Below are positions 33,651-34,075 of a stretch of DNA of 64,000 bases, one piece after another. The stretch is from NCBI RefSeq assembly GCF_003334355.1, contig NZ_QOWP01000021.1, one strand, 5' to 3'. Within the stretch, counting starts at the first letter, position 1; each line of letters opens with the position of its first letter. Under the pieces are notes generated by a model. It ran no database searches and was not told the origin of the DNA. It saw nothing but the letters and a program-made list of their open reading frames with translations. Source of the stretch: Escherichia coli (GTDB taxonomy: Bacteria > Pseudomonadota > Gammaproteobacteria > Enterobacterales > Enterobacteriaceae). The position numbers and the translations under genes are program-made.

Positions 33651-33673
33651 TTAGCAAAATACGCCCACGTAGT

Positions 33674-33698
33674 CCCGGTCCAGTACCGGGATTTTTTA
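33674..33698 (+). terminator. Rho-independent terminator after the delta-like gene
   Basis: cccggt-ccagt-accggg hairpin followed by attttttacg. Confidence 0.6.
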
Positions 33699-33855
33699 CG
33701 CCTTTTCCCTGGCTGGCCTGAAGGCGTATGAGTGCATATCTATAGCGCATGAAAACGCATGAGTCTCATGCGCCATTTTTGACGCGAAAGCCCTTGTGTG
33801 GTGGCTTCTGAGACGATTTACGGGGTGCATGAAAACCAGTCTGTTAAGCGAAGCG

Positions 33856-33878
33856 GGCAGGCGGGCGGGGCAGCGCAC
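33856..33878. other. cos-like GC-rich motif (candidate cohesive-end region of the P4-like element)
   Basis: ggcaggcgggcggggcagcgcac resembles the P2/P4 cohesive-end sequence as I recall it (GGCGAGGCGGGGAAAGCAC); lies between the delta end and the cargo, where cos sits in an integrated P4. Confidence 0.3.
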
Positions 33879-34008
33879 GCTGTGTATGGTCAAAGTAACT
33901 TTTAACTTTCAATGAGTACCTGATTGAAAGAATCGTTTATCACGTTAAAGCGATAACAATGATTTTAAGCAGCGAGTGTGGTGTAAGTATCATTGTCGAG
34001 TAAAAATG

Positions 34009-34036
34009 TTGCAAGCTATTGAAATAAGTATATATT
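34009..34036 (+). promoter_or_regulatory. Sigma70-like promoter candidate for the cargo operon
   Basis: TTGCAA (34009-34014), 16-nt spacer, TATATT (34031-34036); about 40 nt upstream of the ATG at 34076, which has an AAGGA RBS. Confidence 0.4.
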
Positions 34037-34075
34037 GCAAATGATGAGGAAAATAAAATATGCAAGGACCTACTC

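Follow-up and report, generated by a model that had tools for sequence, protein, structure and literature searches.

Positions 33733-33880 of the 64-kb stretch of E. coli DNA analysed here (hereafter the window) very likely constitute the cos, or cohesive-end packaging, site of a P4-like satellite, through which the satellite DNA would be packaged. The site is almost certainly a homologue of the cos sites of the P2 family, and it is probably still functional for some helper phage of that family. Packaging by P2 itself is less likely than packaging by some P2-family helper, and cannot be assumed because the site is not of the P2/P4 sequence type. On its sequence, it is instead assigned to a distinct cos class that is shared with a subgroup of P2-like phages. 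The cos call rests on a 55-bp core, a triple GCAT repeat, the position of the site, and the end of homology at about position 33880.

An apparently intact P4-like satellite with Hachiman cargo

A P4-like satellite, apparently intact, occupies approximately 27.2-39.56 kb of the window, with ssrA as its integration site. Its length of about 12.3 kb follows from the positions of a 23-bp direct repeat, GTATACCTAA(A/G)CGTATACCAATA, that is present at both ends (27210-27232 and 39433-39455). Extra copies of GGTATAC are present near int, and these copies and the 23-bp end repeats are probably integrase arm sites. No core att repeat longer than 23 bp was found at the island ends. The gene set comprises alpha, CI RNA, alpA, sid, psu, delta and int, plus the Hachiman cargo genes encoding HamA and HamB (Table 1). 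All core satellite genes are intact, and PHROGs matches were obtained for six of six core proteins (int, alpha, alpA, sid, psu and delta). As expected, the C4 RNA and isrK in the immunity region of the satellite fit a P4-type CI RNA locus. The delta product is 49% identical to P2 Ogr, and its homologue in NZ_CP020520 carries the RefSeq label 'ogr/Delta-like zinc finger family protein'. No P2-like structural genes are present within the 64-kb window.

An annotated island in E. coli strain 190 (NZ_CP020520) is nearly identical. There, a second integrase and phage genes come after the island (15335-18800 of our locus L003), at the place where smpB directly follows in the window; this suggests that a further element integrated at the same place in strain 190. 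A 152-aa open reading frame between HamB and int (37694-38152, minus strand) has no match in PADLOC.

Table 1. Features of the satellite island and conservation of the segments around its cos site. Percentages are mean pairwise identities among 26 distinct same-class satellites and versus the same-class phages L160 and L161.
Feature	Coordinates	Strand	Details
alpha primase	27456-29840	-	
C4/CI RNA	30594-30681	-	Rfam C4 RF01695, 84.6 bits; antisense RNA
isrK	30750-30827	-	Rfam, 76.7 bits
alpA-like	30899-31159	-	
sid	32040-32825	+	
psu	32822-33376	+	
delta	33378-33650	+	Ogr/Delta-like zinc-finger late activator; phrog_603, E = 8.8e-23; last gene of the sid-psu-delta operon; coding sequence 81% among satellites, 31% versus phages
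delta third-codon positions			67% among satellites, 27% versus phages
Late-operon intrinsic terminator	33673-33697	+	TCCCGGT-CCAGT-ACCGGGA, then T6; RNA fold -15 kcal/mol, z = -3.7
GCAT array, segment compared	33731-33775		91% among satellites, 66% versus phages
Triple GCAT repeat	33733-33772	+	TGCAT 33733, CGCATGA 33746, CGCATGAG 33756
Spacer	33776-33823		84% among satellites, 42% versus phages
Core left part	33824-33862		94% among satellites, 74% versus phages
cos core, 55 bp	33826-33880	+	TGCATGAAAACC-AGTCTGTT-AAGCG-AAGCGGGCA-GGCGGGCGGGGCAGCGCAC-GC
GC-rich block with predicted staggered cuts	33860-33878	+	19-mer GGCGGGCGGGGCAGCGCAC
Core right part	33863-33880		84% among satellites, 76% versus phages; least conserved part of the core
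Segment after the core	after 33880		30% among satellites, 28% versus phages
Cargo start, AT-rich Hachiman operon leader	33881-34075	+	promoter-like site 34009-34036 (promoter scan)
HamA, Hachiman	34076-35017	+	PADLOC, E = 1.7e-135; also RefSeq annotation
HamB, Hachiman	35019-37601	+	PADLOC, E = 0; also RefSeq annotation
int	38182-39381	-	
tmRNA (ssrA)	39566-39928	-	integrase gene adjoins its 3' end

A probable P2-family cos site between delta and the Hachiman genes

Cos sites of the P2/P4 family undergo staggered cleavage by the gpM/gpP terminase and serve helper-dependent packaging. When the 64-kb window was searched by nhmmer with a cos profile built from 114 distinct canonical P2-family sites, from which the window's own class had been left out, a single significant match was returned, at 33824-33883 on the plus strand (27.4 bits, E = 1.1e-7). 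The site aligns to the profile with a single insertion (5 nt) and two deletions (1 and 4 nt). The next-best match (E = 0.065), at 38314-38348 on the plus strand, lies inside int (CTGCATTAAAACC...) and is probably due to chance. Because the significant match is unique, we regard the site as a cos homologue. Ungapped identity to the 55-bp P2 core is highest in the window at 33826, at 36/55 with a runner-up of 29, and the identity of the core to that of P4 is also 36/55. The initial annotation of this DNA had suggested a pairwise alignment with the P2/P4 cos region as a check, and local alignment of 33651-34075 with the circularised cos junctions of P4 (NC_001609) and P2 (NC_001895) shows that the resemblance of the wider block is not due to chance. 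The scores of 31 for P4 (shuffle maximum 28) and 37 for P2 (shuffle maximum 29) beat all 300 shuffles.

The proposed location between the late genes and the int-proximal cargo was also correct. The order in the window is sid-psu-delta, terminator, cos, Hachiman, int and ssrA, which mirrors the arrangement in P4 (NC_001609), where cos sits between psu and gop/int. A comparison set of 120 canonical loci was obtained by scanning IMG/VR for the invariant left half of cos. Most of these loci are P2-like phages in which the site lies between gpA and gpQ, and about a dozen are P4-like satellites in which it comes after psu/delta.

The GC-rich block that first drew attention to the region, ggcaggcgggcggggcagcgcac, is present exactly at 33856-33878, and G+C content reaches 87% over 33853-33882. 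Its claimed likeness to the P2/P4 cohesive end, GGCGAGGCGGGGAAAGCAC, stands only in part: 13 of the 19 positions match and six differ, but this likeness is not significant on its own because about 20 other 19-mers in the window score at least 13/19 against the same reference; the signal comes from the core that flanks it. The predicted cohesive end is neither identical nor near-identical to that of P2/P4, and instead matches another phage class, agreeing with phage L165 at 17 of 19 positions when compared by eye. The chance-level score of the 19-mer is what could be said for a GC-rich motif unrelated to cos. That reading is already refuted by the unique profile match (E = 1.1e-7) and by conservation across more than 100 loci, and the position and repeat architecture of the site also speak against it.

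To the left of the block, the flank GCGGGCA|GGCG agrees fully with canonical sites. Homology of the ends suggests a 5′ cohesive end of 19 nt, GGCG...GCAC, whereas the conserved flank spacing and a symmetric GCGsGCr motif would allow a right-hand cut giving ends of 12 or 14 nt. Calibration of the cut positions on Burkholderia phages whose records are said to start at cos was set aside: the phiX216 record begins inside the GC block (GGCGAGG|AGGGGAC), and that of phi52237 begins in gpM, so that neither is usable.

A cos class with a compensated 5-nt shift

Relative to the P2, 186 and Fels-2 types, the window site has five additional bases, a second AAGCG, ahead of GGGCA|GGCG on the left side of the GC block. 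On the right side, between GGCGGGG and GCGCGC, it is about five bases short. The 5-nt gain is thus offset by a loss of about 5 nt, such that the site still measures exactly 55 bp from TGCAT to its right end. The window reads GCACGC where most sites read GCGCGC.

The same layout is found in about 24 IMG/VR satellites, in about 45 metagenome contigs, and in seven GTDB genomes: one each of Pantoea and Enterobacter, two each of Citrobacter and Pseudocitrobacter, and one Rosenbergiella nectarea genome, in which it belongs to a satellite. Elsewhere in these satellites, identity to the window genes (alpha, sid, psu and int) may be as low as 35-50%. Among complete E. coli genomes, the delta and cos module is present in 858 of 5426 (about 16%). 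The layout also occupies the cos position of P2-like prophages L160, L161, L165, L171 (Rosenbergiella epipactidis), L186, L188, L209 and L228, with gpA on one side and gpQ on the other wherever flanking sequence was available. The window core matches those of L160, L161, L165 and L171 at 42-44 of 55 positions with no indels. Because P2-like prophages carry the same layout, the shifted class probably represents a working phage cos and not a one-off product of decay. Burkholderia Tigrvirus-type phages have the feature AAGCGAAG in common with the window class.

Among the satellites, the core and the repeat array (84-94% identity) are more conserved than delta third-codon positions (67%). Likeness between satellites and phages is confined to the GCAT array and the core, given that all other segments show 27-42% identity (Table 1). 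In a megablast comparison with 859 E. coli records, homology ends at 33871-33882 unless the same Hachiman cargo is carried (18 records). G+C content is 55% over 33651-33880 and 32% over 33881-34075. The break at about 33880 corresponds to the edge of the cos-adjacent hotspot reported by Rousset et al. (PMC9122126).

These patterns bear on whether the site might be a decayed relic, inherited from a packageable ancestor, whose GC block, shifted and shortened, has ceased to be a substrate for any helper and which now marks a vertically inherited defence island. We consider this improbable. It would account for a window cos that differs from every E. coli phage cos compared, for the absence of a cognate enterobacterial phage from the collections, for the variable right half of the core, and for the many related copies, such as those in O157:H7, that keep only delta and cos. 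A relic would not be expected to keep its layout in dozens of satellites despite the divergence of alpha, sid, psu and int to 35-50% identity, nor to hold its core more conserved than synonymous sites and its length at exactly 55 bp through a paired insertion and deletion. Moreover, bona fide P2-like prophages use the layout, and the core satellite genes of the window are all intact.

GCAT repeats and a palindrome upstream of the core

The terminator reported after the delta-like gene (reading frame end at 33650) was confirmed as a strong hairpin followed by a T6 run. Alignment shows that the hairpin at 33673-33697 is kept in related satellites, with variation in its loop and stem bases. The palindrome noted downstream, CGCATGAG-T-CTCATGCG, is likewise present at 33756-33772, followed by TTTTT at 33776-33780, but it does not hold up as a separate element, since the third of three GCAT repeats, spaced as in P2/P4, forms its left arm. 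In the window, the repeats are separated by 13 and 10 nt, and their distances to the core TGCAT downstream are 93, 80 and 70 nt. The TGCAT repeats of P2/P4 are separated by 12-13 and 10 nt and lie 94-95, 82 and 72 nt upstream of the core. In E. coli prophages of the Fels-2 type (L181 and L182), the core is likewise preceded by three (T/C)GCATG copies, with offsets counted by eye. From the sequences compared, we infer that phased upstream TGCAT repeats, some 70-95 nt away from the core, are a defining cos feature.

The motif GCATGA (alignment columns 17-22) is invariant in 27 of 27 aligned sequences, phages included. Of the 43 copies of GCATGA/TCATGC in the 64 kb, four fall within 33747-33832 and form the only such cluster in the window. 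We propose that the triple GCAT repeat serves as a recognition array of an extended cos for the small subunit of the terminase.

Might the palindrome and its T-run (33756-33780) instead be mainly a second intrinsic terminator, shielding cos and the cargo from late-operon read-through, and not a terminase element? The terminator scan recovers it (seven pairs, loop of 3), and its predicted RNA hairpin has a folding energy of -8.7 kcal/mol, albeit with a weak z score of -2.1. The T-run is kept in enterobacterial satellites, several changes in the arms convert G-C to G-T, and the palindrome of L177 shows a double compensatory change. Pair-count covariation is nevertheless not above that of shuffles. 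Phages of this cos class have a degenerate, mismatched right arm and an A-run in place of the T-run, yet GCATGA is still invariant. In P2 and P4, the corresponding offset is occupied by a plain TGCAT repeat, and a strong terminator already exists 60 nt upstream of the palindrome. On this evidence a primary terminator role seems rather unlikely. We therefore read the palindrome as part of the putative terminase array, given the invariant GCATGA, the loss of the right arm and T-run in phages, and the lack of covariation. It may possibly double as a weak terminator, since the two roles are not mutually exclusive.

The search for a cognate helper

No enterobacterial P2-like phage with the exact form found in the satellites, AAGCGAAGCGGGCAGGCG, was recovered from IMG/VR, GTDB representatives, JGI/ENA metagenomes or INPHARED. 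When IMG/VR, the GTDB representatives and the metagenomes were scanned by pattern, the only phages recovered were of the Rosenbergiella and Burkholderia types. BLAST with 800 bp of the region gave no match among deposited phages, and a query of 201 bp at a relaxed E-value gave weak matches in deposited phages that fall at the cos positions of P2-like phages.

Three candidate leads were rejected. A comparison of the L160 cos with E. coli genomes gave matches of at most 73% identity, and the three whose context was checked are satellites. The prophages reached through a portal gene carried by satellites proved to be of the ordinary Fels-2 type, and their cos sites are canonical. Finally, a match in Erwinia EtG is an ogr terminator and not cos.

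Outside the Enterobacteriaceae, a P4-like satellite of Rosenbergiella nectarea (L174) and the P2-like prophage of R. epipactidis (L171) have near-identical cos cores of the shifted class, and are a probable natural helper-satellite pairing. A separate observation concerns a satellite subgroup with a TOPRIM/DUF927 primase and without psu (L168, L178, L129, L136, L146, L150, L170, L190, L192 and L205). In its members, cos is immediately followed by a complete P2-gpQ-like portal gene (about 60% identical to P2 Q in amino acid sequence) that is oriented as in the phage, and int comes next. Examples are at 4276-5697 of L168 (E. coli NZ_CM132251) and 4989-6014 of L178 (NZ_CP137705). It looks as if these satellites captured the phage segment to the right of cos.

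A model for packaging of the island

By analogy with P2 and P4, packaging would begin when a P2-family helper is induced in, or infects, the cell. The satellite would be excised by Int and AlpA and replicated by alpha, and Delta would turn on the late genes of the helper. The helper terminase would then bind the phased GCAT repeats and, within the core, the stretch TGCATGAAAACC...AAGCG, and would introduce staggered nicks in the GC-rich block, one at GGGCA|GGCG (33859/33860) and the second at a position to its right. The excised circle of about 12.3 kb would be packaged into capsids downsized by Sid. To the right of the core lies the exchangeable defence hotspot, occupied here by Hachiman. The sequence comparisons establish the homology, position and conservation of the site and the use of its class by phages; terminase binding, the cut sites and packaging itself are inferred.

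A more speculative proposal, which we think rather unlikely, is that P2-family cos sites whose cut region shows the compensated 5-nt shift form a packaging-specificity class of their own. If true, then canonical terminases, such as those of the Fels-2 type, might cut these satellites despite the displaced site, possibly leaving overhangs of a different length. Alternatively, the satellites might be served by helpers of an unsampled lineage, or the variant might be a satellite-specific adaptation that biases packaging in favour of the satellite.

What goes beyond the textbook picture is that an abundant group of E. coli satellites has a cos layout unlike the P2, 186 and Fels-2 types, which raises the question of which helpers can package them. 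Transfer in helper capsids is the accepted route for the spread of defence systems by P4-like satellites. With an intact cos beside its cargo, the Hachiman island could probably move between strains inside helper-phage capsids.

Comparison with known cos sites and satellites

Across their junction, P2 and P4 share the block TGCATTAAAACC-N8-AAGCGGGCG | GGCGAGGCGGGGAAAGCAC | yGCGCGC. Its length of 55 bp matches the core that passages in PMC5694545 and PMC9594776 attribute to Ziermann and Calendar (1990). The window site resembles P2/P4 in having TGCATkAAAACC-N8-AAGCG and then GGGCr|GGCG, a 19-nt GC-rich block of the form GGCG...GCAC, three upstream GCAT repeats at the same spacing, a 55-bp core, and a location that separates the late operon from the accessory genes near int. 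It differs in that its core identity is 36/55, whereas P2 and P4 agree with each other at 52/55. It also has the AAGCG duplication of 5 nt to the left of the cut region with about 5 nt missing to the right, lacks CATGCA just upstream of the core, and has GCACGC for GCGCGC on the right. Gene order is sid-psu-delta with a single-domain Delta of 90 aa in the window, but sid-delta-psu with a Delta of 166 aa in P4.

The closer resemblance is to the eight Rosenbergiella-type prophages listed above, with which the window shares the pattern TGCATGAAAA...GTTAAG(C/T)GAAG...GCAGGCGGGCGGG..AGCGC(A/G)CGCTG and the upstream stretch GCATGAAAACGCATGAGTC. The phage sites carry AAAAAA and AAGTGAAGAGCGCA where the satellites carry AAAACC and AAGCGAAGCGGGCA, and have a terminator in place of the satellite spacer. 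Rosenbergiella, which lies outside Escherichia, is the sole identified host of these same-class phages, and the other contigs are near-identical.

The compensated-shift class and its missing cognate helper are a modest addition to the published picture, in which P4-like satellites have their cos in common with P2-like helpers (PMC9122126, PMC8628076) and a defence hotspot adjoins cos, the cargo between cos and int being variable (Rousset et al., 2022, PMC9122126; Moura de Sousa and Rocha, 2022, PMC8628076). Hachiman has been reported in P4-like satellites as well (bioRxiv 10.64898/2026.02.27.708500). Because the shared cos, the cos-adjacent hotspot and the presence of Hachiman in such hotspots are already published, the site is an ordinary, known kind of feature (Rousset et al., 2022) in a variant class. 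Like the published cos-adjacent hotspot, and with no material difference from it, the window is conserved up to cos and then gives way to variable cargo.
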